A stretch of 63,202 nt of DNA, counting the filler, from Perkinsus olseni (Eukaryota), in NCBI GenBank assembly GCA_013115125.1. It is 15 parts of 15 records of this genome, joined end to end, with 100 filler letters (N's around TTAATTAATTAA, not from the genome) between each part and the next. Parts side by side here need not be neighbours in the genome. Positions count along the whole stretch, not along the records: positions 29,806 to 33,927 come from JABANN010001314.1; 14 more parts are not named here. The stretch is one strand, 5' to 3'. This document shows, in pieces, positions 4,189 to 59,267 of this stretch. The notes beneath the pieces were generated by a model. That model saw only the letters and a list, made by a program, of their open reading frames with translations, had not been told where the DNA came from and did no database searches. Each line of letters starts with the position of its first letter. Position 1 is the first letter of the stretch. The position numbers and the translations under genes are program-made.

Positions 4189-4288
4189 NNNNNNNNNNNN
4201 NNNNNNNNNNNNNNNNNNNNNNNNNNNNNNNNTTAATTAATTAANNNNNNNNNNNNNNNNNNNNNNNNNNNNNNNNNNNNNNNNNNNN
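4189..4288. other. Artificial contig linker (N-run + TTAATTAATTAA + N-run). Also at 8472-8571, 12748-12847, 16996-17095, 21240-21339, 25478-25577, 29706-29805, 33928-34027, 38143-38242, 42342-42441, 46526-46625, 50703-50802, 54871-54970, 59037-59136
   Basis: Same 100-nt spacer with stops in all frames; intervening contig lengths fall from 4188 to 4066 nt. Confidence 0.98.
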
Positions 4289-7985: not shown

Positions 7986-8681
7986 GTCATCAATGACGTC
8001 TAGTTCCGAGGATCCTAGTAGGAAGCGAAGAATTGTGTGGCAACAATTGCTGCCTATCTTGACCCCAGCTCACGTTATGCGATTGAACTTATCATTGAAG
8101 CAAGCCTTCTCTCCCCAGGGGATCATCCCGAAGGGCCATCAACGAAGAAGCGAGGGGATTCTCCAGAAGACACCGATAACAATGGTTTCTATACGACATG
8201 CTTACACTGGTCTCCAGCAACTGGGTTGCAGTCTGAGTACTACGCGGAAGGGGATCTGCGACATCAAACTGGAAATTGCCTACCGGTTCCTGCTATGATT
8301 AGGACTTGCTAGGAAAGCACTCCACCAGTTTCCAGAGCGAATTTCGCTCGAATTTCGGCAACGTTTCGCTCGGCGAAACGCTGCCAGCATTAATACTTCT
8401 GTAGCGGGCCGTGTGAACCCCGCTGGGAGCTGAGGTCCAATGAAGGGCTGAGGCTCAAGATCTTCACCACTNNNNNNNNNNNNNNNNNNNNNNNNNNNNN
8501 NNNNNNNNNNNNNNNTTAATTAATTAANNNNNNNNNNNNNNNNNNNNNNNNNNNNNNNNNNNNNNNNNNNNAGTCGGTGAAACGGTTACTCCTGTACCTC
8601 TTCTACCCTACCACTGGTTGCGTTACTGGGTTCATTTCTGCACAATCATCCGAGAAGAAGCTTTGAGACCAACGACTTACT

Positions 8682-11600
8682 ATGAACCCAGCAAGCAAGA
8701 CTCCGCAAGATCCTAAGAAGTCTCCTCAGGATGTGTCGAGTCCGAGTGACCCACCGGTGTGGGCATGGGAGCTCAAACATGATATTGATGAGATGAAGGA
8801 AATGGGATCCAAGGTGGATTCTTTGGCTAACGCTTTGGAAGAGATCAAATTGTTTATGACTACGAGTATGAGTGCATCATCCATTAAGACCGATACTGCT
8901 ACTAGATATGATAATAAGAGTGGTAATGTTGATATTGATACTAAGCAGAAGCAGTCGGGTACTGGTTCAGGGTCTGATAAAGTGATAGATGAGAACCACC
9001 ACTCTGATGATACTGTGGTGTCGGTGAGTTCTCAAGACTTACATTCCGTCGGCGTTGATGTTACTAAGGCCTCTAAACGTGCTAAGGCTATGGGCACTAT
9101 TGAAGGTGGACCATATCAAGGAACCACTGATCAGAGGGGATTTGTGGCTTTCAGGAGAATGATATTAGATACTCCCGAGGTCGAGTTTGGGCCTTCTACT
9201 GAGCAGCAGTGGGCCTTTGTGTTCTTTTATATTACAGCTAATGTGACGGTTCCCATTAAGAAGCTCATTACTAATACTTGTAGGAAGAATGGGGATACCA
9301 CGTTTAAGGAGAGGTTGACTACGGCTTGGTCGGTGCTGAAATCTTACAGCGACCTGTCTGATGAACTTTCACTTACTACCAGGTGGGAGTCTCTATCATG
9401 CAGTGACCCTAAGGGGTTAGAACAGTTCATTGCCGACTTGGAATGCATCCGTGATCAGCTAGCTTTCCAGCGTGGGTCAGAGCTATCCGATGTAGAGCTA
9501 CGTGGCCGCTTATATGGCGGACTCCCGATCGGATCTCAAAGATATATTGATGGTCTACCGAAGGGTTCATGTGCCACTTATGATATGATGGTTGAGGAGG
9601 CTAAGAAGTGGAGTCGGTTGTCAGTTAAGTATGATGACAGTAAGTCTAGTGTGGCTAAACCGAAGCTTACACCTAAGACTGCAGCACCTAAGAAGTCTCC
9701 GGCTCCCAAGAAGACTGCCACTAACGTGGAGTTGAATGGGGTTGAGACGGTGACTGCACGTGATAGTGGTGGAGATGCACCTCGGCGAGTCTTCGTGAAT
9801 GGTATTCCAACATGGTGGTCCTTCATTGATATGAAAGCTTTCGTCCAGCAGGTGTTATCTGCTGAGTGTAAGGTCTATGTGAAGATGCTACCGAGTAGAG
9901 GGAATGGCGTCCTCTCGTTTGGGTCTAGTACTGATGCCAAACGTTTTATCGATGTGATTACTAACTCCTCATTTGAGGGATGTGAGAAATTGAGAGCCCG
10001 TTTTGATAGGTATGAACGATTCTCCTCAGATGGGAAGCCTCGATTTGGTAATGATCGTCCTCTTCGAACTTCCATGGTTTCTACTCAAGTTAATACTGTT
10101 AGTACTAATGTTGAGGAGGGTACTGAAGCTCCTTCTCAAGTCGATGTCTCTAATCATGAATGCAATAATGGCATTTTGGATAGGGGTGATGTTACTGGCA
10201 GTGTGACAATTGACAGGGTACCAGGCGATAGTGACCATCCAAAGCACGGAGCTCAAGTTTTGACTCGAACAACTACCGGTTTACCGTGCCTACGTGTGAA
10301 GGTTGGGAATGAACATCTTGTTCTTGACGCTATGCTTGATTCAGGGGCTACGGATGTTTTCCTTTCATCCAAGTGCTTTGATGAGTTGGTTCGTGCTGAT
10401 CCCTCACTGGTGTTAGGTTCGTGTTCACAAACTGTTAAAATGGTGAACGGTACGGGCTGCTTGCTCCGTGGTGTGGTGCGGGGTGTTCTCCTACAACCTC
10501 TTGGTGGTCAGCGAAGCCGTGTTGATGCTTATGTTTTGAGTTCATGTAACCATGACATGATATTGCCACGAGGAGTTCTTGGACGTTGCCTATGGATGAT
10601 GAATGAGGATGGTAAGGATGTGATCATCTTTGGTGAGAAGGCCGAGAAAGTGCTGCAAGATGCTATCCCTTCTACAAGCGTTCCCACTTCTGAAGGGTCG
10701 CATGTTGTAGAAGTAAATGGTGCTGAGATGGTGTCGAACCCATTATCAATTCTTGATAATGGGGGAGGTTCTTCGCCTGAGAGGGTCTCGGTCTCTATAC
10801 CATGGAAGTCCGATGCTAGACCGAGTCAGAATTTTCCTGCGATCCGGCGGCGGATGCAACGTGTCTTGGCACGACTTTCTGAAGATTCTGCGAAGTTGGA
10901 TGCTTATCAGAAGGCTGTGAAGGAGTTGTTGGCTTCCGGGGCAGTCGAGGTTATGAAAGGTGACGATGATCCAGAGGAGTTTGCTCTCTTCTATACTGCG
11001 GTGACTCCGGTTATAGATGAGTCTAGGGTGAGCACGAGATGCCGGTTGTGCCTTGATGCGCGACCTTTAAATACTTTCACCAAGCTGCAAGGTCTTGAAG
11101 ACCCGTCTGTGATACCAAGACGCCTTGACTTGTATGCTTCGATACTGCGATGGCGGTGTATGCGTCGTGTGAGCTGTGAAGACCTCAGCAAGGCCTTTTG
11201 GCAGGTTGAGGTCCAGAGCGGCGATAGAAGGTTCCTGGGAATGGTGTTGGGACCAAATTTGGTGGTTCGGTGGGTTCGAGTTCCTTTCGGGTGTGGTTGG
11301 AGTCCGTGGGCCTTATCTTATGGTATCCAAGTTGCGATGAATGATGTTACGAATGCTGATGCTCGTTCCAGTTTGGACTACTATGTTGATGATCTGTGTA
11401 TATCGGCCTCTAATGAGGCTGACGTTGAGCGAAGCCGGTCCTTCATTATTCCTGCCTTGGCGGCTCGTGGTTTCATGACGAACCCTCAAAAAAGGGCCCA
11501 TAATTTGGGTACTGACTCATCTGTTATAGGCGTGGGTGCCTTGATACATGATGTTTCGGTGTCTAATGTACATGCCTGGCTTGGATACCGTTGGTTGGTT

Positions 11601-12747
11601 GATGATGTTACTGATGTGATGGATATCAAGTTGCCGAATTTCAAGTTGCCTACTATACTGACGATGAGTGTATTGCGGTCTACCGCGGCGAGGTTGTTCG
11701 ATCCTCTTGGATTGTGGGGTGAAGTGACACTTGAGCTTCGTCTGCTTCTACGTGGACTTCATAATGAGGGTTTTGGAGTACGACGCGGGGGTATTGTCAC
11801 TAAAGATACACTCACCGGTGAAGCTGAGGCGAAGGCTCGTTCTTGTATCAGGGATTGTGATGAATACCTTCGATCCAATCGCTATGTTCCTCCCCGGTAT
11901 GTAGATATGAGTGATATAGTCTGCTTTTGTGATGCTAGTGATGTGGCGATTGCTACTGATTGTCGCAGTCGTGATCAAGGGCAGAGAATAATGAGCCGAC
12001 TCAGCACTCATGCCGGTGGTACTATTCCACGCCGTGAGTTGGAGGCAATTAGAGTTGGGATTTTGGGCGTCCATCAGTTGTCGAGTGCTCTTGGCCCGCG
12101 AGTTCCTCTCCGTAGATGTGTGATTGTAAGTGATTCCCTTGTTTCTCTGTATCGTATTCGTCATGTACTTCTTTTTAAGGACAGTTCCAGGTCGAAACTT
12201 GATAAGATTGGTAAGCCAGAACAGCGTCGTTTGATCCACATTTATGATCTTGTTCGTTGCATTCTGACTGAAAATGAGGATCTCTGTTTGGACTTTCGTC
12301 ACATTTCCTCAGCCCAAAATTTGGCTGATCGGTTGACTCGCCCAAGCTCTCTGGTTGGTAATGACGATCGTGATTGGCAAGTGACTTCTGATGTCCTTAA
12401 TGGCGATTCGATGATGCACTTCGAAGTCTCATTGGATGATGTACACGATGATGGTTGTCGTTTCAATATTCAAGGTGATGACGTTGATGATTGCTGGGAG
12501 TCATGTTCGCCTACTTCTTTGCCTGCCTGTAATGTTGTCACTATTGATGAAAGTTCATCGTGGTTCTGTGAGTTCAAGAAAAGAGTTCAAGTGGCTCAAA
12601 GTGGAGACCCTGAGTGTGTTCATCTTGCTACGTTGTTGCGGGCTAACTCTTCATGTTCTCAGTCTCGGTTTTATCGTCTTGATGAAGAGACCGGTATGCT
12701 ATTGGTGCGAGAATTCAAGAATGATAATCCCGATTGCTGGGTTGCTA
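8682..12747 (+). CDS. gag-pol: LTR retrotransposon Gag-Pol polyprotein (Gag, RRM-like domain, protease, RT, RNase H), BEL/Pao-like; 3'-truncated by contig end
   Basis: Single uninterrupted ORF; protease LDSGA; RT RLCLDAR, DLSKAFWQV, RVPFG, YVDD; Pao-type LFDPLG, FCDAS, TIPRRELEA, SDS, NLAD. Confidence 0.93.
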
Positions 12748-15113
12748 NNNNNNNNNNNNNNNNNNNNNNNNNNNNNNNNNNNNNNNNNNNNTTAATTAAT
12801 TAANNNNNNNNNNNNNNNNNNNNNNNNNNNNNNNNNNNNNNNNNNNNCCATCTGCTTCCTACGGGCTAAGAAGCACTCCTTTAAGAATGCTTCATGAGGC
12901 AAAAATCACCCGATAAACCCCTAAAGAAGCTCAAGAAGCTTTAACTTGTTTCAAAAGACGATTTTTATCGAGCCTTGCAGCTTAAGAAGCTTAACCTCCT
13001 CAAGAGGAGGTTATGGGGGGATTTTTCGACCTCCGAGCCGAAATTTCGACATCGCGACGCTCTTCGCCACGCTCCCGACTTAGCAATGATTCAATATCCA
13101 CTTAAACTTGCTTCCTCCTTCAACCTTAAACCTTCTTTCCCAGTTCAATGAAGTTCAACGCCTCAATAAATTCACGCGGTTTCCAACGCGGGTTCAATTC
13201 CTAGCCAGGACACCTATTTTTTGATGAATTTTATGGCTTGAGAAGCTCAATAAGGCTTCTTAAGGTATAAGAAGTCAGCCTTAGAGAAGGAAAATCTTTT
13301 GAAACAGGCTGTGCTTCTTGAACAATTTCTTATAAGAGGTTCTTATACTTCAAGAAGTGCCTCTTTGAGGAGACTTTTGAAATAGGCCCCAGTTCTCCTC
13401 TTATTGATTGTTGCTCTAAATTCAAGACCTTAGTTTGCTCGAGACTCGAGTCATAAACCAAGTTAGAGAGCGCATCAGCTCCCCCGAAGACTGATGATAA
13501 CATTGGGCATTGTTGTTCATTGATATCGTTGAGAAGCATCGGCTAAGCCTCGTCCAAGAGTGTCAGACTGAGACTACTACAGCGACCCCCCCTAGTCCCC
13601 CTTCACCAGGTCCGATGACGCTCTCCCTTCAATGACGTTTACGAGGCCCCAACCGTAGACACTGGACCTCGAACTCCTCCGCCTAGCCTACCTTCATCGC
13701 AATCAGAAAGTGGTCGTTGGAGACCGTCATATTGAACAAGATCTCTTAACAAGAATCGTTCACAGTGGTTACGATGGAGGTTCAAGTTCGGTGGTTCGGT
13801 GGTTCAAGTTGGAACTGCGTAGGGCGGTCTGAGCTCCGAGAGAATACTCATCCCAGTTCTGTTGAAGTTGTTAGTAGAGCCCCGTGCATATGGAAAAGTG
13901 ATCAGTCTTTTAACGAGTTAGCTATTCTCGTTGTGGCCCCTCTTCATATATCGGCTCTTTCAACTGGAAGGCTTCCAGCCTATCGTGTTCGTCAATCGTA
14001 GTCTGGCTCTTATATCGTTAGTGCTCGGTCGACTCTCCTAGCGAACTCACCATCGTTGTTTTACCAGATGTTGAGTCGAAAAATCGACCCTAGAAGCTAC
14101 GACGTTTGTATTTGTGTGTCACGAAAGTTACCAGTATACAGTATGCCGAGAGACCGAAGGGTCTTCAGCTGTGGTGAATCGAACTTTCATCGCCAGGCAT
14201 CTGTTCTGACGCCCATTGACATTGTATTATACATGGCTTTGAAAACGTGTCAGTGTTAGCTGCGTAGCTACTAGCTAGACGCTGTGTAAGTCTGTAAAAG
14301 ACTGAATATTAAGTAAGAGCTTCTTACTAAGAAGATTATCCTGTGGTGTTCTCTGGGTTATTATCCGTGTATTCCTCTGAGGTATTTATTGCTCTTTGGA
14401 TACGATCGGGTTTAAATTGTGTACATCACTCGGTTATTGATAAGGATCATCGGTCACAAGAACTGGTTATTGTGTTGATTAGTCATGGTTACTGATAATG
14501 GGCGTAGCTCTGAGTCACCCGCAGATGGGACTCGAACTGTCAACAATAACACAGTGCGTGCTTCCGGCTCCCAACACAGGGACCAGAGTGGAATCGGAGC
14601 AGCAAGCTTTGCGCCCCCAGCTTGAGCTAGAGCATCCACGAGCAGGGAAAAACATCGAAGCAAGTGAAACATTACTAGCGGATGGTAGTAACGCTCGGCC
14701 CAGCCCTCCGCTTCCTGGACATGGAGGTAACCTACTGGTTACGCATCCACTATTCACGCTCTCTATCTCTGCTCTATGGAAATTTCGGGATTTGTGCTCG
14801 TCACCTAGACGGCTCTTGCTCCAAGATGATGATGGCTCGGCCGGAATTAGCTCGCCCACTGCGGCGGGCGACACCTCCCTCCTTCGTGCAGTATCTTCCC
14901 CCTACTATGCACAGGTTCGGCCTCAGCCGAGATGGCCTTTCCAGCAAAAGCAAACACCAGCCTCGATGATGCTCTCACTCACCGTAGAAGTTGATCACCC
15001 CAATGTCCCCTCGTCACTTTATCGTTGGAGTTTTGCCTGCCATTGCTTCGCTTTCGAGTCAACTTTTAGGTTAAGCGAACGGAGGGATTGCCCCCCGCTA
15101 TTTCTATTATGTA

Positions 15114-18368: not shown

Positions 18369-19269
18369 GTGGTTATTGATTTCGGTAAAAACCCCACTAC
18401 TGGTCGTTCAGTGATGATGAGATGTTCTCGATTGGCCTTTGGCCTTTCAATAAGGCCAGCAGGCTTGGAGTCCTCTCTCGATAGATTATTCGAAATCTTA
18501 AGATCATTTCATCCTTCTGTTACTTGCATTCGTATCATGGATGACATAGTAGCTATAGGATTATCTGACGACCTAGTTAAGTTCGAGAAGGATTTACTAT
18601 ACATTCTTGACCTTTGCGGCTTTGATGTGCCACCCAATAAGATGAACTTATGGAGTGGTGATTCGTGGTCTCGTTGGCTTGGCCGTGATTGGATATGGAA
18701 CGGCTCTCAGCTACTGGTAAAAGTTCCCAACATCGACTACAAGCCCATCGCAACCAAACGTCAAGCCTTCTCAAGGGCTGGTAAATATCTGCGGTTGTGC
18801 GAGTCAGTTCCTGAAGTACAAGCACGAGGTCATGCCGACATAGTCCGTACACTATCAGGTCAAGAAGCTGAAGACTGGGATGTACCTTTGTCTACCTCCA
18901 CCACAAGGTGAATCAACATCTAGAGGCAGCCGCCACCGCATGGAACTTCATCCCACGGTGGGATTCCCACCTGAGGTTCCACTCTATTCATCAACTGAGA
19001 AGATGTTAATATCTCATGATGCCTCGAAGGATGCTTATGCTTCCGTACGTTATGACTGCACTTATTGTCAAACTATTGTGTTAGGAGCTCAATCTCACCT
19101 CTTTCCTAACACAGCTATCGCTTGGCATGCGAATAGACGGGAGCTTTATTGCATTGCATCTTCTTTGATGTCTTTACTACATTTATTGGACAATGGTTAC
19201 TATCCCGTCTTATCGCAGTTAACTATCATCATGATAGTGTGGATGAATGACAATTATCGCATATCCTGA
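18369..19269 (+). pseudogene. pol: Degraded RT-RNase H fragment of another LTR element
   Basis: RLAFGL, RIMDD, WLG, SHDASKDAY, WHANRRELY; frame change near 18900. Confidence 0.8.
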
Positions 19270-19418
19270 ATCGCTTCGCTCCGCTCTCAAGAGCGCAGTT
19301 TCATAGTCGTTTTACTTCTCAAAGATACTCCTCTCCTGGAGAGGCAAGGATCGCCGACGACGTCGGCGATCTCAAGGATATCGTTGATCCAACGGCGGAG
19401 GCCAGCAAAAGCGCAGTC

Positions 19419-21206
19419 TTGAACAGAGCCGTATCCATGAAGCTACACAAGTCTGGTGGCTGCAGCGGTATTTGGGATGTCGATTTTGACTTACTCCTGA
19501 AGGCCACCTCCGTACAAACCAACAATGCATGCAACGACTTCCCACTTGATTTGGTGTCCGGGCTCCACATTTCCAAGCTGATTCTCTCCATGATCGAAGC
19601 ATGGGAGCAACTAAGGGAAACTGATCACGGACTGAGTCGTGAAGAGGTATGCGACATCGAGGAGGCCATCAACCTCGTATCATCGAGCTATCCAGCTCGC
19701 CTTCGGAATGGTTCGAAGTTTGATGCTCCCAAAAGCCTACGAGGCCTGAAACCGAAGGATGCTTTCGATTTGGTCCTCCTGGCTCAGTCGATGGCCAGCG
19801 GTTCAAGAGAGGCTAATGTGATACCTAAGACGGCTGCTCAGACGCTGAATGGCTTCGTGGAAATCTTCGATAAGCTGCCGAGAGAGCAACGCAACGTCAC
19901 TAGTCTTCTAGAGACGTTCAAGCGTCTTACCGGTAACTTCGGGGTTGACAAGACTAACATTCAGTACTTGAAGGCCATACTAGATCCATCGAAGGGACAC
20001 GTGAGCAGGCGAGTTCTGGACGAAATCCTCGTGCACGAATCGCGGCTGAAGCTATTCGAGAAGAAGAGCAATTTGCTATCGACCTCTTTCTCATGGCCTG
20101 TTCTGGGTGTGATTTTCCGTCATAACTGGTTCAGGAGCCTCAACAGCAAGGAGTTTGACTTGAATCAGAAAGGTATCGGTATGATAACCTACGTTAACAG
20201 CTTCTTCGAGCCGGGAAACCCTGCGGGAATGGATGGCCATCGTATGATAGGAGAAGAATCCCTTCTGAGGGATGATGACGGAAGGCCCTACGATTATGAC
20301 AGCCTGAGGGAAGAGATGCTGAGCGTGCTAGTGGAGGCCATCGCAAAGTCCAGCGCTGCAAGGAGTAGCCGCCAACAGAAGATGGTTAATCGCCGAGATG
20401 TCCTTCACATGAAGTTCACTGTCGTGGTCTGGTACATCTTCAAAGCTCACCCGTCTTACTACGAGGCCGCGGAGAAAATTCCGTCTGCGAGTGCTATCAG
20501 TCTTCATCGCTCTTACTTTTCTAGAGCGTCGGCTGTCGATGTAGTCTTCAGTACTTTCGCCCCTTCCTTCGCCGAAGGCCTCCAGTGCGATGCTTGTAAC
20601 AGTCCAACCTTCGAAGGACTGAATCCTAGCGAGGTGATGATGGCGCCAAAAAATGTCATGAGGGCTATTGCTACTTTGAAAGACGAAGAGCAACGTAAGA
20701 AGGAGAAACTACAAGAAGAAGAGGAAGATGCTCAGCGGAGAATCAAGTTGGCCAAGATCGAGGAGGCCGAGCGGCAGCGTCAGGCAGCGGATAAGGAGCT
20801 GGAGAAGATGCGCTTGGAGCAAACCAATCTCAATCTCAGTAGGTTTGCTCTCATACAGAAGCAAGCCGTCAGGTTAGCTACCGAGGCTTTACGCGAGAGT
20901 CAGAAGAAGTGTATGGCCTACAAGTCCCAAGTCGAGAGTGATCTCACGGACGCGTCAAATGAGATGCTCGACACCAGAGTGTTGATCTTGGACTACACCG
21001 GTTCAAACACAAAGCACAATGAAGGCCCTACAGCGTCTACGGGAGTCTCTCTGCAAGCGAGCTGCGCTAGCACGCCTATGACGTTACTGAGCGGCGGCTG
21101 GGTAGAGAAGGCCGCACCGTACATGAGAGCCGTGCTACAAGGAAGGCCACCTGATGTCATCTATATCGACCTAGCAACACTCGCAGCTGAGCTGCTAGAA
21201 GTGTAA
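19419..21206 (+). CDS. 595-aa hypothetical protein with a coiled-coil region; C-terminus replaced by an inserted repeat at 21171
   Basis: Long ORF with an E/K/R/Q-rich helical stretch; final residues LATLAAELLEV come from the repeat also seen at 47270-47338 and 50633-50702. Confidence 0.7.
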   Translation: MNRAVSMKLHKSGGCSGIWDVDFDLLLKATSVQTNNACNDFPLDLVSGLHISKLILSMIEAWEQLRETDHGLSREEVCDIEEAINLVSSSYPARLRNGSKFDAPKSLRGLKPKDAFDLVLLAQSMASGSREANVIPKTAAQTLNGFVEIFDKLPREQRNVTSLLETFKRLTGNFGVDKTNIQYLKAILDPSKGHVSRRVLDEILVHESRLKLFEKKSNLLSTSFSWPVLGVIFRHNWFRSLNSKEFDLNQKGIGMITYVNSFFEPGNPAGMDGHRMIGEESLLRDDDGRPYDYDSLREEMLSVLVEAIAKSSAARSSRQQKMVNRRDVLHMKFTVVVWYIFKAHPSYYEAAEKIPSASAISLHRSYFSRASAVDVVFSTFAPSFAEGLQCDACNSPTFEGLNPSEVMMAPKNVMRAIATLKDEEQRKKEKLQEEEEDAQRRIKLAKIEEAERQRQAADKELEKMRLEQTNLNLSRFALIQKQAVRLATEALRESQKKCMAYKSQVESDLTDASNEMLDTRVLILDYTGSNTKHNEGPTASTGVSLQASCASTPMTLLSGGWVEKAAPYMRAVLQGRPPDVIYIDLATLAAELLEV

Positions 21207-29805: not shown

Positions 29806-30070
29806 GGCTGAAACTGTACCGCTGGATACTGTACGAGTCGTCAGTGTATGGCCCAAGACTGTACGTGTGGAAACTGTATGGATCAGGCTTGTACGAGTGT
29901 AATTTCTACGAGTTGTCACTGTACTGAACGATCCTCACCGGCCAGTTCATCTTGTTGCAGTTAGTACAGTGTCGTTTCGTACCGTGTCGAACCGTTCAGT
30001 TGCCGCAGGTACAGTTGCAACCGATACAGTGTCGGATCGTACAGTTGCTTCAGGTACAGGTACGGTATAT
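29806..30070. repeat. GTAC-rich subterminal repeats: an element right end finishing ..gatcctcacc at 29939, then oppositely oriented units
   Basis: ttctacgagttg..actgtac..gatcctc(a/g)cc matches the right end of the MITE at 58445-58814. Confidence 0.7.
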
Positions 30071-30370
30071 AGAAAGCAAAATAACCTCAGGGAAATTCAC
30101 TAGACACCAGTTAAACGCAGAAGTAATTGTGAGAAGCGTGGGTAACATTGAGTTGTTGTGGACGAGCCGCCCGTTCAATCTTGAGAGCCGATGACCCGGT
30201 TGGCCGAACATGGCGGTCTCAAACAACATTGGACGGGGACCCCAGGGGAGCAGCGTGCGAGTCAAGTGTTTTGATTTCATCTGCAGCACGCGGTCTGTCG
30301 GCAGTTTTGTGCGCAGTCATTCTTTTTTTCTTCAGGACGGGCGATAAATGCGGCACCGTACAGCTTCTTC

Positions 30371-31433
30371 TTGACTGCCGCAGAAAGGCATGGTATCAGT
30401 ACACTTCACCGCCTCGGTCACTCTACTCGGGCGATTAGCCAGCTCATCGGGCGAAGCCAGAGTTTGGTGTCGCGGGTCTGTCGAAGTCAGTCTACTCGTC
30501 GAGGAGCGCAGAAAGCCAGAGCCCGACGGAACAGTACATTAGGCCGTCCACACATTCTCTCTGAGAGGGAGCGGCGAGCACTGTTGAGATTGCTTAATGC
30601 GGCCAAACATCGGCAGCCACATATCACCGCAAAAGCCTTCTACAACTGCATCAATGCACCGATATCGTACGACACTTTTCTGCGGCTCGTCAGAAGCAGC
30701 TCCTGGAAATGCCGGAAGAGAGTCCGCCGAGTTTGCCCAAACACGCGATAAAGCGGCCCGACTAAAATAAGCACGTGATATTCTGAAGCGGTGCGGCGGG
30801 AAGCGGTCCGAAGTGCTAAAATTCTTTCGTCACGGTGTTGGCTTATATCTTGATGGTGTATCGATAGGCTTCGACGAGCATGGTACCCGGGCCAGTGCCC
30901 GAGAACGAACCTGGACGCATCCAACGCTGGCTGCTGATACATTCAGAAGCTGCTTTTCATGCAGCTGTAAGGTGAAGATCGTGGCGATGACTCGATACGG
31001 CCAGCAATCGGATATCGTGAAGATTAGGGATAGTTCTGCAGCATCGTATTGCGGAGTGTTGCAGCGGGATGCTATTCCGAGGTTGCAGGAAAGATGCAGG
31101 GAAAACCACGATAACCGAAAGGTTATCATCGCGGATAATTTCGCGAGTCAAAAGACAAAAGCCTGTATGCAGGCTTTGGAGAGGGCAGGATGCAAATATG
31201 CTGCGTATCCGGTACGCAGCCCTGACATCAACCCGATTGAAAATGCGTTCAGTGTATTGAAAGGCCGCCCTCGTGCCGAAGCGACGGCTAGCCATCCGTG
31301 TACAACGGAAGCCGACTTTATTGAGCCAGTCCGCCGAATCTTCCGGTCTATTGATACCAACAGCTTAATAAGTACGATGCCGAGAAGACTACAGGCCCTC
31401 CAGGCTACTCGTGGCGGTCTAATCGACTACTAG
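30371..31433 (+). pseudogene. Tc1/IS630-family DD34E transposase, disrupted near 30750-30810
   Basis: N-terminal HTH (GHSTRAISQLIGRSQSLVSR), GRP..LS; catalytic IADN to SPDINPIEN with exactly 34 residues between D and E. Confidence 0.92.
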
Positions 31434-32436
31434 CCTTTGGTAACCCACCCGTTGCAATCTCTGGTCCATCACACATGGCGTGTATTTGTCTCTTAGGTTC
31501 TTATTCCGCCAGCTCGTCGGCTGTCTCGTTCCGCCAGCTTATTCTGTGCCTACGACGCAGCTTGTCGGGGTAGCAGATGTCCCCAAAGATTGACGCTTAT
31601 CGTCTTTAAAGGGTGTCATAGCACGAGGTACGTCAGGTCTTCCATCGGATGTGCTGTCCAAACTCTTTCAGCATTTCAGGCCTTTCTCCTCAGTCACTCG
31701 GACTCGTGACCCATCGTGTTACTCTATTCCGTGAATGGCGTCCTATCGGTGTTATCTCTCGATACAGCGTAAATATAGGTACCCAACTACCATCAATCGC
31801 TGTGGATGAGAAGTACTCTGTATGTTTCTAAGATAAATTGTTGCGTTTTATTTGTTATAGTAATATAGCAGGGGGTCGATAAGAGCCGTGTGATATACTT
31901 CCCGAGTGCAGCTCTCTCATCAATTGGAGGGCAGTGTGTTTCATGATCAGCGAATTGTATAAACGCTTCCGCAACGCAAAATGGACCTATTTTTCCTTCT
32001 TGCTGTTTGCACTCATCGACCCGTGAAGGGATTGTACGCCCAGACCGTTTCGCCCGAATTGATCAATTGATCGATCGAACAACTGAAAATCTGTAGAATA
32101 TAAAAATATATCCATATAATAATTAGCTGATCATTCGATCAAAATATCAGATTTTTCGTCGCAATGGAGTATCTCGACATCGAAGCGGTCGCCTCTTCAC
32201 CGAGTCAGCCGCCAAGCGGCGCTGCGGGGCCGGAAGATACTGCATCCATTGAGAACTTCATAATTCCGGACAGTAGCCAGGTTACCATTTTTTCTAGTCG
32301 GGAAGCACGCACACGTGCTAGAGACGTACGCATCCTGCGAAGTGTCAGACTCAGCAATATGGCTCATCTGGCTTCAATATCCCAAATGATGCTCCGTTGC
32401 GAGCGTCACCGCACTACTCTTGCTTCTATCTAATAA

Positions 32437-33210
32437 ATGGTCTCACCCATGCGATGGCAGTGAATCACTGCTGGCAGCAGCAGCCGCAGCAATCCGCTGC
32501 GGCCAGAACTGGATTTGACCAAAGCAGACTTCGGCAAGGTCATTCGAGAAGCCTTCAAAGAGCATGACGTGCCCTTACTTTACTTTTGCGTCGCCAGCGA
32601 AAAGCATTCCGACTCCAACACTCACTATCACGCCGCAACCAGATCTTCTCGTTGGCACCGCTGCAGAAGAATAGCGCGCTGGTTGTTGCGCCACCGTGTT
32701 GCCGTCAGCTTCAAGGCTTTCAAATCATATCTCGCCTCGTACAAATACTGCGTCAAAAGAGATGTTGCTCCCTCCTTGAGCGAGGGTCATCCGCCGTATC
32801 CCTCGGAACCTGTACAGCGGGAGCTGCGCATCGTCGGCGAGAAACAGGAAGCTGGTGAAGCTTGCAAAATCCGTCGCCTGAGCGATATTGCGGGGTGGGT
32901 GGTGAGCAGAAAACTGAAGACGGAGCGGGAGTTTCTGGCCGCGGCCAGCAAAGAAAAGAACCTGAAGAGCTTTATTCTGGATCACCGAGATACACCGGGT
33001 ACTATGCTCAAGAGGATATGGGGGATGGAGTCCGCGGAGCCTGATCTGATAGGAGCATCCAAATCGAGGATGCAAATTTTGGAGGAGACAGCCGATTCCA
33101 GTGTATGTGCGTGCAACGGCGTCACCTCCAGTGATATCGAGACTATTCTGACCAGGAATGAAGTGCCGGTCCACTCATTCGTTCGCGCCATCAGGCGCAC
33201 GCCTCGGCGG
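32437..33210 (+). pseudogene. rep: HUH (Y1) rolling-circle Rep endonuclease, CRESS-virus/Replitron-like; in-frame TGA at 32461 and 3' truncation by an LTR-like repeat
   Basis: Motif I remnant WQ*ITA; motif II CVASEKHSDSNTHYHAA; motif III YKYCVK. Confidence 0.85.
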
Positions 33211-33317
33211 CTGTCAGCTATGTTGTCTCTCTAGCGCTAGATATTATTGATATTACTACTTTGTAATTGTAAGCTTTCGAGACTGAGTAACATCCACTTC
33301 AAACAGTACGGTTATCT

Positions 33318-33927
33318 ATGTCAAACTCAAACCAGAGCAGTGTTCTCACTGGGCAGACTACTAACAATATGGGGGCTGTGCCGAGAAGTGACGCCTCTGG
33401 TTTGAATCCTGGTACTGGCATGTCGGGGTCTGGTTTGGTTAGCGGTGCAACGTCCAGTGAACTGCAAAGTTTGGCTTCTTATATGGGTATCAGCTTGGAC
33501 CTAGTCGATCAGTTGCGTATGACCGATTTAGATAGTGTCCATGCCCAGGACGCCAATATTAGTTGGGCGGATAAGCTAACGCACCGACGTGCACTCGAGC
33601 AGGTTTTGTGGGCAAAGTCGGCTGGCTGCAAGAAGGTTGCTGCTACTACTGCAAAGAGCAGCGAAAATGTGGATGTCTCCAAGCTTATTTCCCGTGCTAA
33701 GGATGCCGGGAAAGTTAGCGGAGGTATTTTTAAGGGGTCTCAGGATACGAGATCGGTTGCTGTGTTCTTAGATGAGGTTGACTCCATGGATGAGTATGCT
33801 TGTGGCTCTGATGCCTACAAGTATTTCTACCTACGGGCCAGTCTTGATGAAGACATACGTGGTTATGTTAATAAGGAAGTGAAGGCTAAGATCAACAAGG
33901 AAGGTGTGACTGCTGAGAATTGGCAGC
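33318..33927 (+). CDS. gag: LTR retrotransposon Gag N-terminus, related to the 8682 Gag; truncated by contig end
   Basis: RAKDAGKVSGGIFKGSQDTRSVAVF vs RAKAMGTIEGGPYQGTTDQRGFVAF; preceded by an LTR-like repeat. Confidence 0.75.
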
Positions 33928-39002: not shown

Positions 39003-40098
39003 ATGCACGAAACCTCGTCCGCTTCACTCCTACTGCTGCTGTGCTCCCTTGCCATCATCTCTGTCGCCTATGGCCAAGTATTGAGGTTTCCTACGCAGTA
39101 TACCTATCAACCGGCATATGGATATGGTCTTTTCGGCCAACTCGGAAGTTGATTATCAAAATCTTACTGTTGCGGTCGATACTGGTACATCACTGACCTT
39201 CCTTGTGTGGGACAAGTGGCACGACGACCATTCCCATTGTGTCGACTTTCCGGTATCGCGCTATCGATGCCCAGAGTCTTGTTTACCCTATGGTGTCTCG
39301 AGATTCACATACAGAGACGATTATAGCGTCCTTCTTTTTCCCAACACTGTACGGCAAATTGTGAGCCCGAGGCACGAGATTAATGGTCTGCTCCAAATCG
39401 GGTTGGATGTCGGATACGAAGCGCCTGAGGGCTTGAGACCGTCACACACTATTGGACTTGGTGGTGGTGGTGATCGTCAACGTTACCCATCCCTCATGAG
39501 CCAACTCGAACTTGTTTTGGGCCCCTCTTCCTTCGCACTGTACCTGAACAAGCCGGTTTGCGACCACATAGATGGAGAACTCATCATTGGGGGTGGTGAT
39601 TCTAACCTGTATACGCCGCCGCTGACTTTCGTCCCGCTAAGCCTCCAAGACGTTCCTGTGGTGCCGGTTGCTCACTTGAAGATTGGTAACTCGTTTGAAC
39701 GTCCCATCGATGGCTTTGCTATCATCGATACGGGTGCCCAAGACATGCTCGTACCTGAACCCCACCGTGATGTTCTTCGCGAACGCATTCTTACCGAGAT
39801 TGCCATTCGTAGCGGCACTGAAGCTGGCTCGAACTATATCCCTACCTTGGACCTCACGATATTCGACTGCTTTTTTATGAGGTTTCTGCCGCCCATAGAG
39901 ATCGGCTTGGGCAAGCTGGGAGAAGCGCCCACAACTCTTACCAACTATGCCCGAAAAGTGGATGGCACTTGCTTTCTCGCCATTAAAGGTGCCGCTGACA
40001 ACCGCTGGACTCTGCCAGCGTTCATCATCCCCGGCAATTACTTTGAGTTCCAACCATCCGAAGGTCGACTCGGGGTCGCTAAGCTCCGCGATTGGTGA
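39003..40098 (+). pseudogene. Secreted pepsin-like aspartic protease with a single +1 frameshift near 39144
   Basis: Signal peptide LLLLLCSLAIISVAYG in one frame; VAVDTGT, IGLG, FALYL, GELIIGG, AIIDTGA, LPPIEI, GRLGVAKL in the next. Confidence 0.9.
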
Positions 40099-46600: not shown

Positions 46601-47269
46601 NNNNNNNNNNNNNNNNNNNNNNNNNCACTTGTGATAAGTCTGTTACGGTTTACTTATCGCTAAGCAAGTCACGCGTCTAAGTTCATTCACGCGCAGCATC
46701 ACTCACTGTCAGGTACGATTAGTACGAAACGTGACCCAAGTACGTAGGCAATACGCTACTGGTGGAGTCACAAGATACTGTGTCGCATATTTTCGCTTAT
46801 CGGTTTGCTCGGGAAGATGGGCATGCCATGTTTGCCAGTACGAATGGAGCCCAGCGATTGAGTTTCTTTAACTTTGCAAGCCGGCGACAGTTCTCAACCA
46901 CGAAGTCACAATGTCGACAGTGCCGGCCGCCGGGCCGGGGCGCCCGCCGCAGGCGGGGGCCGGCCCCCGCCACGCACCACCCGCAGCACTCGGCCGGGGG
47001 AGCGCGNNNNNNNNNNCACCCGTCATAACGTCCCTCCCCTATTGCCTTTTTGTCTTTTGGGGGCCCGGCTTGTGAACCCTTGGGCTGGGGGCCCGGGGCC
47101 GCACACATCTCCTCTCGCATCTGCATCGCGCGTTCATCGCCCTCTGTTCTTTTGCCTATGCCTGACCGCCCTCGCATATATCTCTCACGTCCAGAACCTA
47201 GTAACATGTTCTATTATGCTGTGGTTTGCTCACGGTGTATGGCCTAAGCGTAGCGTCCGTTGAAACGAT

Positions 47270-47338
47270 CTCCATCACATCTGAGTACCTCCTGATCTTA
47301 CGTTGCACGTCTAGCGGCTCAGCTGCGAGTGTTGCTAG
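47270..47338 (+). mobile_element. Hairpin + CTAG element terminus, copy B (diverged); the element probably extends left toward 46626
   Basis: Reverse complement ctagcaacactcgcagctgagccgctagacgtgcaacgtaagatc..gatggag matches copies A and C. Confidence 0.75.
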
Positions 47339-50300
47339 GTCGAAGGCCGCTAGTTGGTCACATTGCGGAGTCTCCTTGATGTAGCGCTCACGTAGATCAG
47401 CCTGTTTTTGACGCCAGGCTTCTACGTATTCCTCTACGCTCGACCGCATACGCTCTTGATAATCGGATAGAACTGGTAACAGACCTCGAGCGAAGGGTAG
47501 ATATTCGGCGTTGAGGTAGCGGGAGTCTAATTTATCGTAATCGATGGTAGATGGAGGCGCATCACCAGGTAGCCTCCCACCGTAGCTATAGTGTAGATAA
47601 CTTGGGCTCATGTAGGTCCAATGCTTAGGACTGCAATTATAGATACGGATGGCTAACATAAGGTTATATAGTTGCTCCATAGCATCCTCACTAGATCCGC
47701 TGATGGTGCGAGCAGTCTCTGTTAGATCACGATGTGCCCTCTCCCAAAAGGAGAGATGGGCTGAATAGCCAGGTAGGCAATACAACCGACACCGATGTTT
47801 AGCCATCATAGATATCACTGCCTTAGATAATATCGATCCATGAGCTTTGTCGCACAGGGCTACACTTGGCGGCCCATGTTCGCAGAATATAGAGTGGATC
47901 GCAGCAGCGATAGTAGGTCCTTTGCAGTTGCGTAGTGGTCTAGATGCGATAAAGCCGCTCACAGCATCTTGGCAGACTAGAGCATAATAATCCTTAGACG
48001 GGTCGAGTAGATAGGTATTCTCGCCATGAGAGTCTCCACCTCGATTCCGTGTAGATGCTCTTCCGTAGGGACCTAGGATATCAATCCCAACTAGTTGCCA
48101 TAGCTGCGTAACAACCATATCCTGGACCGCATTGTTAGCATATCGAATGGCTTTAGATGCCCTCGCCTTGAGACACAGAGTACAACTAGATGTCGTTTTA
48201 GATATGATCTTGGACAAGCCACGGCCCATGAATCGTCTCTGCAGGTAGAGACGTAGCTTCCGTCTCCCTGGGTGCGATAGAATATAGTGGTAGATCGCGC
48301 AGAGGAGGCTGCATACTAGGCGCGCATACCTTGATACGCCCAGATAGATCATACCATCGGCATCATCATCTTCACGTGAGGGCCCTTCATACCACGGTCG
48401 CTGCCTTATGATCCCGTTAGGATCTAGGTGACAGTGGTGCTCCATTCGATTGAAGGTAGTAGTTCTCATCCCTACTGACCCTCTAGGAACGTGTCCTGAT
48501 AGATAATCTCGGAACTTAGCAAGATCTTCGTCTTCAGACTGACAGCGTCTGAGGCAGGTATTTAGATCGTCGTTGAACTCGATGTTGTCCTGCAGAGAGC
48601 TTAGATCCGCATCGCTCCCTCTAGAAGTATCGATATGTCTTGCAAGTCTTCTTAATTCGTCCTTCATCTCAGCCGTCAGGTCTGTCTTGTCGATATCAGG
48701 GATATCTAGACCATCACAGTTGATAAGATGACATCCTCCACATAGATTGGGATCAGTCGTCTCACTCGGCGAAGGACATTTAGTACACCGGATCAATGAT
48801 CCGGGATCATAGCCATAGATTTTTGGCTAGGGTCATGATTTCCTAGCTCAGGCTGTTTGCCCTGACCGCGGCCCGCGTTCACGACAGTGCTAGTGGTCGT
48901 CGTAGATGTAGACTCACAGCCTAGGATAGTAGATCCAGTGGTAGAGGTAGATGACCATGAAGTTTTAGGTGCAAGCACAGCGAAGCACCCCGCGTTACCA
49001 ATAGTGCAGTCATGGTCTAGACTCGATGCTGCCGAACGGCAGCACCCCGCGTTACTGGTGTTAGTGGGTTCCGTTGGAGGAGCCCACCCCGCGTCGTTCA
49101 TAGATGACGCAATAGAGCAGTAGACTTCCCCATCGATCTTGAAGTCTCTCTCCTCGTCGGGTACATCATGAGGGTCAATGACCCTGGGTCATAGATGACT
49201 TTCGACGAGTCGATGGCCTCAGGTAGCTTAGTACCATCGAATATCCGTCCCATAGAGTAACGTGATATAGAATCAGCTGGATTGCAACCAGATGGTATGT
49301 GCCTAACTGTAGCGTTTAGTTGAGCACATAGATCACGTACAGCTTGTAGGCGACGTTTCTCAGGGCTAGGTAGCCGTTCGTCGTTAGCTGGCCGCCTAAG
49401 GCGATAGACGGTTAGCTCGGAATCGATGGCAACAACCAGGGGATAGATGGGCACTTCTGGACTCAGATTATTGACAGGGGCTTGGTTCTTCCCATAGACA
49501 GTAGTTATGGGTAGATACGCCGATAGAGTCCTCACCCATAGTAGACCACGATGGAGTGCGTCTAGCTCTTTCCTGGGAATAGACCAGGATAGATTTGCAG
49601 TAACGTAGAGGCCTCCTTTAGCAGAGAGCCGGACATCAGGATGAGACTTGAGTCGTAGATCAGCTCCCCAGGCATCTTTAGATGCGTCGGTGCTGAGGAT
49701 CAACTCGCTGTCATAAGGTAGATACCGTGGAGTAGATACCATCGTACAGATTCGAGTCGACTCACGAGTCCATCGAACAACATGTTGTTGTAGTTGATGA
49801 GAGATAGTCACATCCCACTCCTTGGTCTCTTGGCAAATGCTCCTCCAGATAGACCTGCCGAGGATATCATGCTCGATGAGCAGGCCAAGAGGATCATATA
49901 GAGAAGCCAAGGCGCTACTGGCAGAGCGCTTGGTCATAGATGTAGGTCCCAAGGGTTCTAGGCTGGGATCAGCAGACATAGTTGGGTAGAGACCGTCATT
50001 CGAAGGCAGATAGTCGTACCCTAATAGATGCCCGCGTTTCTCGATCCCCCCTTCGAGCTGAGATAGCCAGTTCTCAAATTTCTTGAGATCTTCAGCCGGT
50101 AGGTCATGCCCCTTGAGGACGTAGGATACGAAGCCATAGTTGCGTTGAGCTTCCGCAACCGAGGACCCTAGAACGTAGATGTCGTCCACGAACTTCAACA
50201 TCTTTATGCCGCTAGGTATCGGAGGACCGTTACATAGGTACTCGAAGGCCTTGTCAGAGGGGTAGAGTAGACAATCCTTAATCTTAGCGGCTTCTATAAC

Positions 50301-50632
50301 AGATAGATCTAACTCGACGGCGTTGCCATCGGTCTCACGCACTAGTTGCGTCAGATGGTAGATCTCGTCGGTGGCGTCGTCCACAGTGCTGTCCAGCATA
50401 TTAGGTGCTGATCTAGTTCCGAACCCTACGCGGGCCCATAGAACTGTAAAGGGTCCTATACAAGTGTATCCGACATAGGGGATATCACTGTAGTTAGATT
50501 GCATCCTACAGAATGCTTTACTTAGATCTCCAGCAACGAAATATTCAGATGATCGTAGCAGGAGTAGGGTACCGTGTAGGTTATTTTGAGGATGGCCGCC
50601 TCTCAGGGAGAATAGATTGGCCTCTCGATAAT
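47339..50632 (-). mobile_element. pol: BEL/Pao-like LTR retrotransposon pol (RT-RNase H 49098-50632, integrase to 47339), frameshifted; both ends cut by CTAG-element termini
   Basis: LDYR..N, DLSKAF, RVGFG, FVDD, LASLYDPLG, STDAS, SIPRKELDA, NPAD; integrase H..H..C..C, GIDILGPY, CD, FWER.H. Confidence 0.92.
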
Positions 50633-50702
50633 CTAGCAACACTCGCAGCTGAGCTGCTAGAAGTGTAACACAAGATCCGGAGATATTGGGCTGCGATGGA
50701 GA
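50633..50702 (-). mobile_element. Hairpin + CTAG element terminus, copy C
   Basis: Identical to 21171-21239; ends the contig. Confidence 0.8.
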
Positions 50703-52217
50703 NNNNNNNNNNNNNNNNNNNNNNNNNNNNNNNNNNNNNNNNNNNNTTAATTAATTAANNNNNNNNNNNNNNNNNNNNNNNNNNNNNNNNNNNNNNNNNN
50801 NNGTGAATATCTACGCATTACTGCTATCCCGATTGCCTCTCTCTCCCAATCTCCTGTGCACAGGCGGCTTCACAACAGGGAAGAATCATCTCGACGAGGC
50901 TGTGGTTGAATAATGCTTTGAGCAATAACAGAATGCCCCTGCACGAACAGTAGCCGGACTGTCCACGACCGAAGCCTTCCAAACTCACCCGGCACAAAAC
51001 TTTGTGTTGTATTACCATTCACTGTCGCTGGACAATATACTGGTAATCATCACCGGCATGTGCGAGAAGCTCCGACGAACGCCGACTAGAACCACAGAAG
51101 GAACCCGAAAGTTTCGACCTTGTCCAGAAACAAATGAGCTACCGCGGGAGCTCGCTGATGTTACTCGTATTTTCATGCTATACGATTCAGCCTCGGGTTC
51201 CGGTTGGGTTGGTGAACAGCCATTTGTCCAGTTCGAACGTTTTATAGAGATACGCGGTTTCTATTCAAAATTTAGCAAGAAGGCGCCTACTTATCAATTA
51301 TTGTGTAGTCATTGCTGGTTTCGACAAGCGTAGAAAGATATACACCAGTGTCATAACGCGTCGAACACAACAGCACTGACATAGAGTGTGCATGAGACCT
51401 TCATTACTAGGAGTAGGCATGCCGGAAGGAACATTGTGAATTCGATGGATGAATGATGATCACCTTGGCCAATAACAAAAGCAGCAATAACAGTAGTCAG
51501 TTTCATCAGAAGGATCTGTGCCGGCAGACGTGCGGTCCTCGGGTGTGGACGAGAGTCGGATTTGATACCCAGAAGACTCTTCCGCGGCTGGATCGTCAGT
51601 ATGCTGGTGGTAGACTGCCATGGGCGGCTGTGGGCTGAGAGTACGCTGAGACAGACCAAGGCGTGCATCAGTCAGCGGCGTATTCACGACGTAGGGGCAT
51701 ACCTTCCCGAACTCTACTTCTCGGCCCATCGATGCGCTACCGACGACCGTTGGGTTCTGCTACAAGCGTAGACAGGTTAGTGGCGAACTTCAGGTTTTCA
51801 CCCCTACTTTACGAGCAGATCCTGCAAGCTGTGGGTGACTGAGCCAGGGGTGTTGCAAGATGTCCAAACAGAGTGGCCTTCTCCGAGGATCAATCGATAG
51901 GCATCGTCCTGACAGACCACCTCTGAGATTTTGCGGCAAAGTTCACACGACGGACGAAGAGAATTTTTATCAATGCAACGTTGAAGACGCTGTCAAAGAA
52001 GACGGGACTGAGAAAAAATCGTGGACACGGTGGAATGGTCTAGTTGGTTATGACGACTGCCTAACACGCAGTAGGTCCCGAGTTCGATTCTCGGTTCCAG
52101 TAATATTTTCTTTTGTGAATAGCCAGTTAACACACGTTTTGCTCGAGGACTGATAATGCGGATTACACGGGGCGAGTCGCTCCTACAAGTGGCGACATGA
52201 TCTGTAATACACCCGCA

Positions 52218-55909: not shown

Positions 55910-56220
55910 GTCCTCGTCGGAGGATAGCTGCAGTTCGGCAGAATGTCATGCTCTGAGTGTTGAGAACGGCGTCTTTGATGAGAGCCTTTGGGCTGGAACC
56001 CCAGTAGGGGAGAAACTATCGAGTCGACAACATCAAGGACGGGTTGCTCTACGCTCTGGGGAGCATTGTCAAGAGTCCTCGTCGGAGGATAGCTGCAGTT
56101 CGGCAGAATGTCATGCTCTGAGTGTTGAGAACGGCGTCTTTGATGAGAGCCTTTGGGCTGGTACCCCAGTAGGGGAGAGACTATCGAGTCAACATCAAGG
56201 ACGGGTTGCTTTACGCTCGA
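55910..56220 (+). repeat. 165-bp tandem duplication inside the LTR element
   Basis: gtcctcgtcggaggatagctgcag... at 55910 and 56075. Confidence 0.9.
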
Positions 56221-56244
56221 GACAGCAATGTCGAGACTGAGAAT

Positions 56245-56525
56245 ATCGATAAGGTTAAGAGCTTCGAGAGCATCATTGACATCGACAAGGCTAAGAGCTT
56301 CGAGAGTACCATTGACATCGACAAGGTTAAGAGCTTCGAGAGTACCATTGACATCGACAAGGTTAAGAGCTTCGAGAGTACCATTGACATCGACAAGGTT
56401 AAGAGCTTCGAGAGCACCATTGACATCGACAAGGTTAAGGGCTTCGAGAGCACCATTGATATCGACAAGGTTAAGAGCCTTGAGAGCACCATTGAGATCG
56501 ACCAGGTTAAGAGCTTCAAGAGCGC
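56245..56525 (+). repeat. 36-bp coding minisatellite, ~8 copies (IDKVKSFESTID)
   Basis: atcgacaaggttaagagcttcgagagtaccattgac repeated. Confidence 0.95.
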
Positions 56526-58814: not shown

Positions 58815-59267
58815 GCAGGCTTGCCTTCATTGAATAGTCGAGCGAGGGTCAGGCGGCCGCGCACATGACTAGGTTTCGCCGCACCTATTCGGCGGTAGCT
58901 GATCCCAGCCTAGCAGCCATGGACGCGACTTTTCGCGACCTTTTCTCGACCGGGAAAACTTTTCCCGATTTGCATCTTCTCGACCCAGATACAGTCCGAA
59001 GGGAGATTGGCGTCTTCGTCCGGTGTGAATCAATGCNNNNNNNNNNNNNNNNNNNNNNNNNNNNNNNNNNNNNNNNNNNNTTAATTAATTAANNNNNNNN
59101 NNNNNNNNNNNNNNNNNNNNNNNNNNNNNNNNNNNNTAGTAGTACAGGCTGGGGAGAAACGTCCGCTACCTGGCGCCAGCAAGTATTATGGTCTACTCCG
59201 GCCGCTCTCTAGTTGGGAGAGGAAGGATACCCCATCGCAACGTTGGGTCTACGAAATTCACTGGGAC

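Follow-up and report, generated by a model that had tools for sequence, protein, structure and literature searches.

A decayed Rep–transposase element in Perkinsus olseni and a model for a family of two-gene, LTR-like DNA elements

The window, that is, the whole 63,202-nucleotide stretch of Perkinsus olseni DNA analysed here, consists of small contigs of ~4.2 kb joined by N spacers with TTAATTAATTAA, and sequences facing each other across a spacer are therefore not genuine neighbours. Positions 30108–33201, on contig C348, are a decayed, 3′-truncated copy of a two-gene element of ~3.7–4.2 kb. The order of the element is a terminal unit (U), a Tc1-type DD34E transposase, a Rep fused to an SF3 helicase and a second U. 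The features of the window copy are:

30108..30283, no strand: left terminal unit U, 176 bp, with imperfect TIRs (CAG at both ends) and a central GC-rich stem; aligned with five other terminal units of the genome
30167..30238, no strand: origin-like stem, with arms at 30167–30183 and 30224–30238
30332..30733, plus strand: Tc1-type transposase, N-terminal HTH part (Pfam HTH_38, E 5.5e-8; 43% identity to the transposase of paralogue C394)
30747..31433, plus strand: Tc1-type transposase, catalytic part (Pfam DDE_3, E 9.6e-8; D 30852, D 31134, E 31239)
32057..32090, no strand: GATC-rich palindromic cluster upstream of the Rep gene, common to paralogue C394 (blastn 82% over 34 nt)
32164..32292, plus strand: Rep N-terminal part, MEYLDIEA...QVTIF, matching the start of P0012 and P0015 and followed by an intron or small insertion
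32424..32440, plus strand: true HUH motif I, FYLI..W, broken by a frame change (from comparison with P0008 and P0015)
32464..33201, plus strand: Rep main frame, with motifs II and III, a helical oligomerisation region and a conserved CxC (33106–33114); the SF3 core is missing
33211..33366, plus strand: unrelated LTR-like repeat truncating the element, 156 bp, with 9 other matches in the genome

The preliminary description of this DNA had reported a Rep in a protist, which is the correct host, and had missed the transposase (30332–31433) and the terminal unit (30108–30283) of the same element. The window U is flanked by AC on the outside and by CA on the inside. Within its stem, a putative origin, the arm at 30167–30183 has one mismatch to the family motif and the arm at 30224–30238 is of the CAACATTG-GGGG type. 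The transposase has a D–E spacing of 34 and is broken by a frame change near 30733–30747 and by an in-frame stop at 30768. The GATC-rich cluster is a putative promoter or Rep-binding site. In the Rep gene, the ATG at 32164 opens the upstream ORF (MEYLDIEA...SIENFI), and motif II (EKHSDSNTHYH, 32599–32631), motif III (read as YKYCVK, 32740–32757) and CACNG (33106–33120) are all present as previously described. The open frame runs from 32464 to 33231, and homology to a full-length relative stops at 33201, short of the start of the LTR-like repeat at 33211, which was already held to cut the element off. Beyond the repeat, an ORF without a Pfam match reaches the contig end and is gag-like, judged by its position only; at the other side, a GTACAG-rich dispersed repeat (29806–30060, 38 matches) adjoins the left end of the element. 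With a broken transposase, broken 5′ frames in Rep and no helicase, the window copy is dead.

What the Rep gene has lost can be read from P0015, a P. olseni protein of 492 amino acids that is identical to the window ORF at 221 of 235 positions (94%). P0015 begins with MEYLDIEA, has FYLITW as motif I and ends in an SF3 helicase with Walker A (GPSACGKS) and Walker B (VLDDF). From this comparison, the upstream ORF is the true N-terminus of the protein and the lost part is an SF3 helicase, as had been surmised, whereas ‘WQ*ITA’, earlier taken for a remnant of motif I, is an out-of-frame reading. The FYLI of the window stands at 32424–32435 in a different frame, and the frame breaks between there and 32497. 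The upstream ORF had also been proposed as a spliced first exon. Its place at the N-terminus stands, since it is joined to Rep in P. olseni gene models; the splicing is seen in paralogue C394, where contigs of runs X6 and X9 (from two studies) skip a 69-nt GT–AG intron in Rep that DNA run X3 keeps, indicating that transcripts of this paralogue are made and spliced. That X6 and X9 are RNA is a guess, whose one support is the spliced joint, and no RNA holder is on record for C394. The N-terminal part of Rep is predicted to be disordered (pLDDT <50 at residues 1–73 of P0015).

Over 152 aligned proteins, motifs I–III, the CxC, Walker A and B, an arginine finger and a C-terminal CxxC are near-invariant, with the HUH motifs I, II and III standing in Rep order; the conserved cysteines may bind zinc. 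The YxxK tyrosine (Y178) is found in 139 of 143 proteins and a second tyrosine six residues upstream (Y172) in 136 of 143, which is not the YxxxY spacing. The protein had been described as a single-tyrosine HUH Rep: it is a HUH Rep with a YxxK-type tyrosine and, by motif conservation, likely of the Y1 type, while the second tyrosine is conserved likewise.

A structure model of P0015 (pLDDT 83.8) was searched against 48,161 chains and matched both HUH and SF3 structures, in line with the fold comparison to viral Reps suggested earlier. The modelled helicase aligns with papillomavirus E1 (Z 16.8, r.m.s.d. 4.4, 252 residues aligned) and AAV2 Rep40 (Z 16.7, r.m.s.d. 4.4, 250 aligned), and residues 72–193 align with the vientovirus Rep nuclease (Z 10.5, r.m.s.d. 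3.2, 110 aligned) and with the nucleases of geminivirus (Z 9.6), nanovirus (9.1) and circovirus (9.0). The Reps of circovirus and geminivirus are less close to the helicase than papillomavirus E1 and AAV Rep are, and a second family member, P0023, gives the same fold picture. Identities in these structural matches are 10–19%, and those to viral Reps, solved or predicted, 10–17%. On these models, Rep forms a separate lineage in which the nuclease is CRESS-like and the helicase E1/NS1-like. Matches to PPV_E1_C occur in 8 of 43 family members and to Parvo_NS1, below the cut-off range, in 4 of 43; no Rep match reached the cut-off with Pfam alone. A PDB sequence search with P0008 returned nothing useful, and one with the family profile returned weak matches only, to AAV Rep, vientovirus Rep and E1.

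The window Rep finds five places in the P. olseni genome, and the C394 Rep gives eight rows on seven contigs. There are four close Rep copies (C348, which is the window copy, C394, C169 and C429), with ~40–50% identity between subfamilies. The U–transposase–Rep layout is found in C348, C394 and C429, with ~40% amino-acid identity in both genes; in these three of the four close copies the transposase lies upstream of Rep in the same direction (38–45% identical to that of the window by tblastx), and no transposase is present on the C169 contig. Like the window copy, the C394 transposase has HTH and DDE_3 domains with DD34E spacing. It finds the three Rep-linked copies strongly, together with two fragments (C2014 and C367), and no Perkinsus protein. 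Eleven other DDE_3 loci served as a control; neither a Rep nor the stem was seen in the DNA examined from them, although six of these loci are <1.1 kb. Paralogue C394 has a terminal unit at both ends (3503 bp apart), open frames and the spliced intron, so that copies with shared termini, as envisaged in the preliminary description, do exist in this genome. In P. olseni, the annotation has a run of three consecutive, identical Rep gene models and a further pair of neighbours, with no transposase model between consecutive ones, where a transposase may be absent or unannotated. A second Perkinsus Rep–SF3 subfamily, with ~24% identity, was seen in C2978 (L005:1360–2736), C861 (L018) and C2623 (L059). 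C861 and C2623 have degenerate HUH motifs within long open frames, C2623 holds several partial copies, and C2978 and C2623 gave no transposase match; this subfamily is possibly domesticated, and P. marinus has relatives of 687 and 839 amino acids.

A family profile built from 7 sequences retrieved 227 cluster representatives at E ≤ 1e-30 and 857 at 1e-10. Members with named hosts come from Acropora millepora, A. cervicornis, Porites lobata, P. olseni and P. marinus; several Rep gene models lie on one Acropora contig, and head-to-tail gene copies are found in named genomes. In a metagenome scan, 145 stretches matched, 116 were confirmed and the best 80 were kept. Among these best 80 of 116 Rep loci, a Tc1-like transposase accompanies Rep in 46 (other queries gave the same number) and in 38 of the 44 that have at least 1.5 kb outside Rep. 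Four of the six misses are contigs that end at most 850 bp from the Rep end; L122 and L140, with >2 kb downstream, are real misses. All 46 pairs are convergent, on opposite strands, with gene ends ~0.4–1.2 kb apart where both genes are in order. Orientation differs between hosts: it is convergent in 46 of 46 marine loci and co-directional in the three Perkinsus loci with both genes.

Of the 19 loci in which neither gene is interrupted, 18 have the DDE triad and 17 the spacing of 34, and the DD34E and HUH/SF3 motifs are intact across 25–60% identity. Distances between Reps correlate with those between transposases (rho 0.66, 0 of 2000 permutations), also after dereplication to 13 loci (rho 0.49, 48 of 2000 permutations). 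Two groups recur in both the Rep and the transposase trees, in which deep nodes are mostly unresolved and bootstrap is not settled. No third gene is shared among the 33 other ORFs of at least 150 amino acids in the best 80 of 116 loci: these ORFs are a 15-member cluster antisense to Rep, one flank seen twice (2 ORFs) and 16 singletons. The complete units (L073, L067, L075, L091 and C394) hold two genes only and no capsid or VP gene, so that the adjacent capsid gene considered in the preliminary description is absent from them. No relative was found in IMG/VR scans with three alignments or by tblastn against plasmids. Two loci have other arrangements: L085:1–2283 is a Rep-only contig with terminal-unit arms inverted at both ends (147 bp, 99%), and L087:228–4789 carries Rep and transposase inside a different 217-bp inverted repeat without the stem motif.

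The terminal unit is palindromic and consists of short TIRs around a conserved CAATGTTG...CAACATTG stem. It is 150–330 bp long overall and 175–205 bp long upstream of Perkinsus transposases, where its imperfect TIRs start with CAG. Contigs C2655 and C999 supply the host flanks of a C394-type insertion. The empty paralogous sites C786 and C2678 (82–89% identical) have GC once and the filled site has GC on each side, which demonstrates that 2 bp of target, GC, are duplicated. GC also stands on both sides of a solo U in C2547 and follows the right end in C169; exceptions are the AC at the outer flank of the window copy and, in C367, TA on the side away from the transposase. The C1526 unit has inner-type flanks on both sides. 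In marine-animal loci the duplicated dinucleotide is TA. L073, a complete insertion of 3962 bp, has two U copies of 265 bp that are 100% identical; its two outer ends are flanked by TA, as are those of L095. In both loci the U copies are directly repeated, with their loops oriented alike. TIRs were called at both ends for 21 of 28 stems, the other 7 having no TIR call. Ends that face the element genes are flanked by GA in 25, TA in 3 and GC in 1 of 29 cases, and ends that face away by TA in 10 and GA in 3 of 13, an asymmetry with a Fisher p of 4e-5 that is inflated by related copies among the flanks (six units are one family).

The stem motif is present in 34 of the best 80 of 116 metagenome loci, compared with 0 of 1600 shuffles. 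It is conserved from corals to Perkinsus, the arms being kept while the loops vary in length and sequence. There is no conserved nonanucleotide in the loops, and no nick site was located. Half-stems were inspected for a fixed break point as a nick mark; the rows listed proved to be stems whose partner arms are degenerate, or contig ends, except for C429, whose right unit ends inside a stem arm.

Reads give some indication of the form in which copies exist. Depth of run X3 over C394 is flat at ~2800–3250 in absolute terms. A 463-bp X3 contig passes unbroken from the interior through the TIR into U at a depth of 3248, where a doubled U should add about a third, and no X3 contig leaves by the outer end of the element. 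This pattern fits, and does not prove, one U per repeat, in circles or long arrays. An X3 joint that goes back 3503 was rejected as proof of a circle, as 70 of its 73 letters fit both sides and 3 discriminate. Terminal overlaps in contigs L067, L075, L091 and L144 are likewise not proof of a free circle, because an assembler may collapse two identical U copies. L098 and L114 are array-like, may be chimeric assemblies and were left out of the evidence.

We found no description of an element with a HUH–SF3 Rep and a Tc1 transposase in the literature outside Repbase, Dfam and subscription journals. The only precedent found for the pairing of Rep and transposase is the geminivirus-like transposon of Tuber melanosporum, in which, likewise in a eukaryotic genome, TIRs enclose transposase ORFs together with a Rep-like ORF. 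The accessible part of its report describes a single degraded family that combines two transposase ORFs with a geminivirus-like Rep, has TIRs of 37 bp and shows no obvious TSD, reports no terminal direct repeats, stem or mechanism, and does not mention Perkinsus (Liu et al. 2011, PMC3198968). Set against that description, the present element has a distinct Rep clade, a DD34E transposase, LTR-like palindromic ends, 2-bp TSDs and many intact families. DENSOV_HM (Hydra, Repbase 2008), as cited there, is a virus-like integrated element with a helicase at the base of papillomavirus E1 (PMC3198968). This cnidarian repeat resembles the Rep family studied here, which also matches PPV_E1_C, and on its description alone it may belong to the Rep–Tc1 family.

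The Replitron-like affinity first proposed was not borne out. As their report outlines them, Replitrons have a Y1 HUH Rep, no helicase, no DDE transposase, short repeats and mostly no TSD, and Helitrons have a Y2 Rep with an SF1B helicase (Craig 2023, PMC10288648). The present element shares with Replitrons a eukaryotic host, terminal direct repeats and a HUH Rep, here likely of the Y1 type, but its intact copies have an SF3 helicase, a DD34E transposase and 2-bp TSDs; the SF3 fold and the TSDs also set it apart from Helitrons (Y2 and SF1B, no TSD), as had been anticipated. A coupling of a replication module to an integrase or DDE transposase is known from Teratorn, Polintons and casposons, which, however, carry herpesvirus genes or a B-family polymerase and measure 10–180 kb, compared with 4 kb, HUH/SF3 and no capsid here; Teratorn is outlined as a herpesvirus–piggyBac fusion, with a model in which concatemers are cut between two transposon copies (PMC10175614). 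Capsid-bearing parvo-like contigs, as presented in PMC6085071, were set aside. With Tc1 elements (IS630–Tc1–mariner, DD34E) the element shares an HTH plus DD34E transposase, TIRs starting with CA and a 2-bp TSD (TA in animal loci), and differs from them by its two genes, four TIR ends in two direct-repeat units and GC target in Perkinsus; the second gene, Rep, is essential-looking. CRESS-DNA viruses and Parvoviridae likewise have a HUH nuclease fused to an SF3 helicase, a stem-loop and a spliced Rep, which occurs in some geminiviruses, whereas here there is no capsid, no conserved loop nonanucleotide, and a transposase of its own. The element belongs to none of the families tested and appears to be new as a described class, single members of which may already sit in repeat databases.

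That U and the two genes belong together as a single mobile element is, in our view, nearly certain. Where DNA carries two origins, HUH–SF3 Reps release unit circles from it; Tc1 transposases cut at TIRs that have been paired, with duplication of 2 bp. We propose that the element is a transposon without a capsid that is copied by rolling circle and pasted by its DDE transposase, a model that we regard as probable and in which free circles would be formed. Rep would nick the stem in one U and, together with a host polymerase, displace a strand until the corresponding site of the second U is reached; a circle of unit length, containing a single U, would thereby be set free. In such a circle both TIRs would be flanked by element bases (GA in animals). 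Driven by the SF3 helicase, rolling-circle amplification would then yield multimers, in which the transposase would pair the left TIR of a given U with the right TIR of a U further along, excise U–genes–U or a longer multimer at the outer TIRs and insert it at TA or GC. Integration would regenerate two identical LTR-like ends and would yield tandem arrays and solo U copies. The model would account for the identical terminal repeats, the TA/GA asymmetry, the arrays and the solo units.

Other explanations are possible. That Rep is a captured viral passenger in a composite Tc1 transposon, held between two MITE-like units and moved purely by cut-and-paste, with circles as assembly artefacts, is quite unlikely in our judgement. 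Every demonstrated insertion has the 2-bp TSD of typical Tc1 geometry, a solo U with its own TSD exists and circular contigs can indeed be artefacts; yet the HUH, tyrosine, Walker and cysteine motifs are near-invariant over the 152 proteins, the stem between the TIRs is kept from corals to Perkinsus, the X3 pattern fits one U per repeat, TA is mostly absent from the inner TIR ends, and two identical U copies are not produced by cut-and-paste alone. Least plausible, and refuted by recurrent pairing and target duplications, is the idea that an endogenised CRESS virus or Replitron merely happens to have an unrelated Tc1 as its neighbour. The HUH domain does resemble CRESS Reps and the genome has other DDE_3 transposases, but the 11 such loci in the control lack Rep and stem in the DNA examined (six <1.1 kb), the pairing in 46 of the best 80 of 116 loci has one orientation and Replitrons have no helicase.

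In another alternative, U might act like a parvoviral ITR, with linear hairpin-ended replication and integration of a linear duplex by the transposase. AAV Rep68 is the top Foldseek and VIA match of P0023, Atlas neighbours include NS1 clusters, the U arms in L085 are inverted around a lone Rep and U is palindromic, which makes a direct repeat also an inverted one. We nevertheless think this rolling-hairpin variant unlikely: the nuclease domain matches CRESS Reps best, the U copies in L073 and L095 are directly repeated and do not differ in loop orientation, and both X3 and the tandem gene models fit head-to-tail repeats. There is a similarly small chance that the element is an integrating virus or satellite that uses the Tc1 transposase as its integrase, with a capsid encoded on another segment or supplied by a helper, as in Teratorn. 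In its favour are the viral-type Rep fold and the very high depth in one run, and Teratorn, as outlined, is a virus–DDE fusion that passes through concatemers (PMC10175614). However, the best 80 of 116 loci share no third gene (the only multi-locus ORF cluster is antisense to Rep), the three IMG/VR scans gave no match and units of 3.7–4.2 kb leave no room. The preliminary description had offered an endogenised ssDNA virus or an undescribed Rep transposon; the absence of a capsid from complete units, the lack of IMG/VR relatives and the affinity of the helicase to papillomavirus E1 and AAV Rep speak against the former, and the latter is supported.

Three classes of eukaryotic DNA transposon are distinguished: cut-and-paste elements with DDE enzymes, rolling-circle elements with HUH enzymes, and self-synthesizing elements with a polymerase and an integrase. 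The element described here joins the DDE and HUH classes in one unit that is stable and ancient, occurs both in stony corals and in a parasite of shellfish, and has LTR-like ends and no reverse transcriptase. In a broader reading, to which we give an even chance, it represents a widespread, undescribed eukaryotic class of LTR-like, self-replicating DNA transposons that use no RNA: a distinct lineage of Rep, combining a CRESS-like nuclease with a papilloma/parvo-like helicase, would amplify episomes and multimers, a co-evolving Tc1 transposase would act as the integrase that rebuilds the terminal repeats, the Perkinsus transposase would have moved from TA to GC, and Rep may be able to act in trans on the stem in tRNA repeats and so amplify tRNA arrays of the host. 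It would in itself be unusual for a Tc1-type enzyme to duplicate GC in place of TA. As a capsid-less relative of HUH–SF3 replicons near papillomavirus E1 and parvovirus NS1, the element bears on the origin of those viral replication proteins, and it would recast many ‘endogenous densovirus/CRESS’ annotations in marine invertebrates.

The CAATGTTG...CAACATTG stem was also observed inside host repeat units without TIRs or transposase (C3142:1–1694 (L153), C999, C786, C383, C2678 and C1465), with a pattern count of 10 versus 1 for the control. In C3142 it lies inside a 1484-bp tandem unit with tRNA-Ala and tRNA-Glu genes, and Rep might amplify such tRNA arrays in trans. GC-flanked insertions were seen near tRNA or tRNA-like sequences in C2547 (L152:1446–1634) and at the C2655/C999 junction; a tRNA-His lies 30 bp from the C2547 solo unit, and a target bias towards tRNA surroundings is possible. 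The left flank of the C394-type insertion holds an ORF for an OTU-like cysteine protease (L058:671–1920, C2655; weak Pfam hit). Elsewhere in the window, an ORF at 19251–21206 has no Pfam match, LTR retrotransposon polyproteins (BEL/Pao-type and other) and an aspartyl protease occur at 8667–12803, 47198–50750, 59085–62879 and 39085–40098, and short tandem arrays of 51, 250 and 36 bp lie at 1–156, 3464–4213 and 56209–56558.
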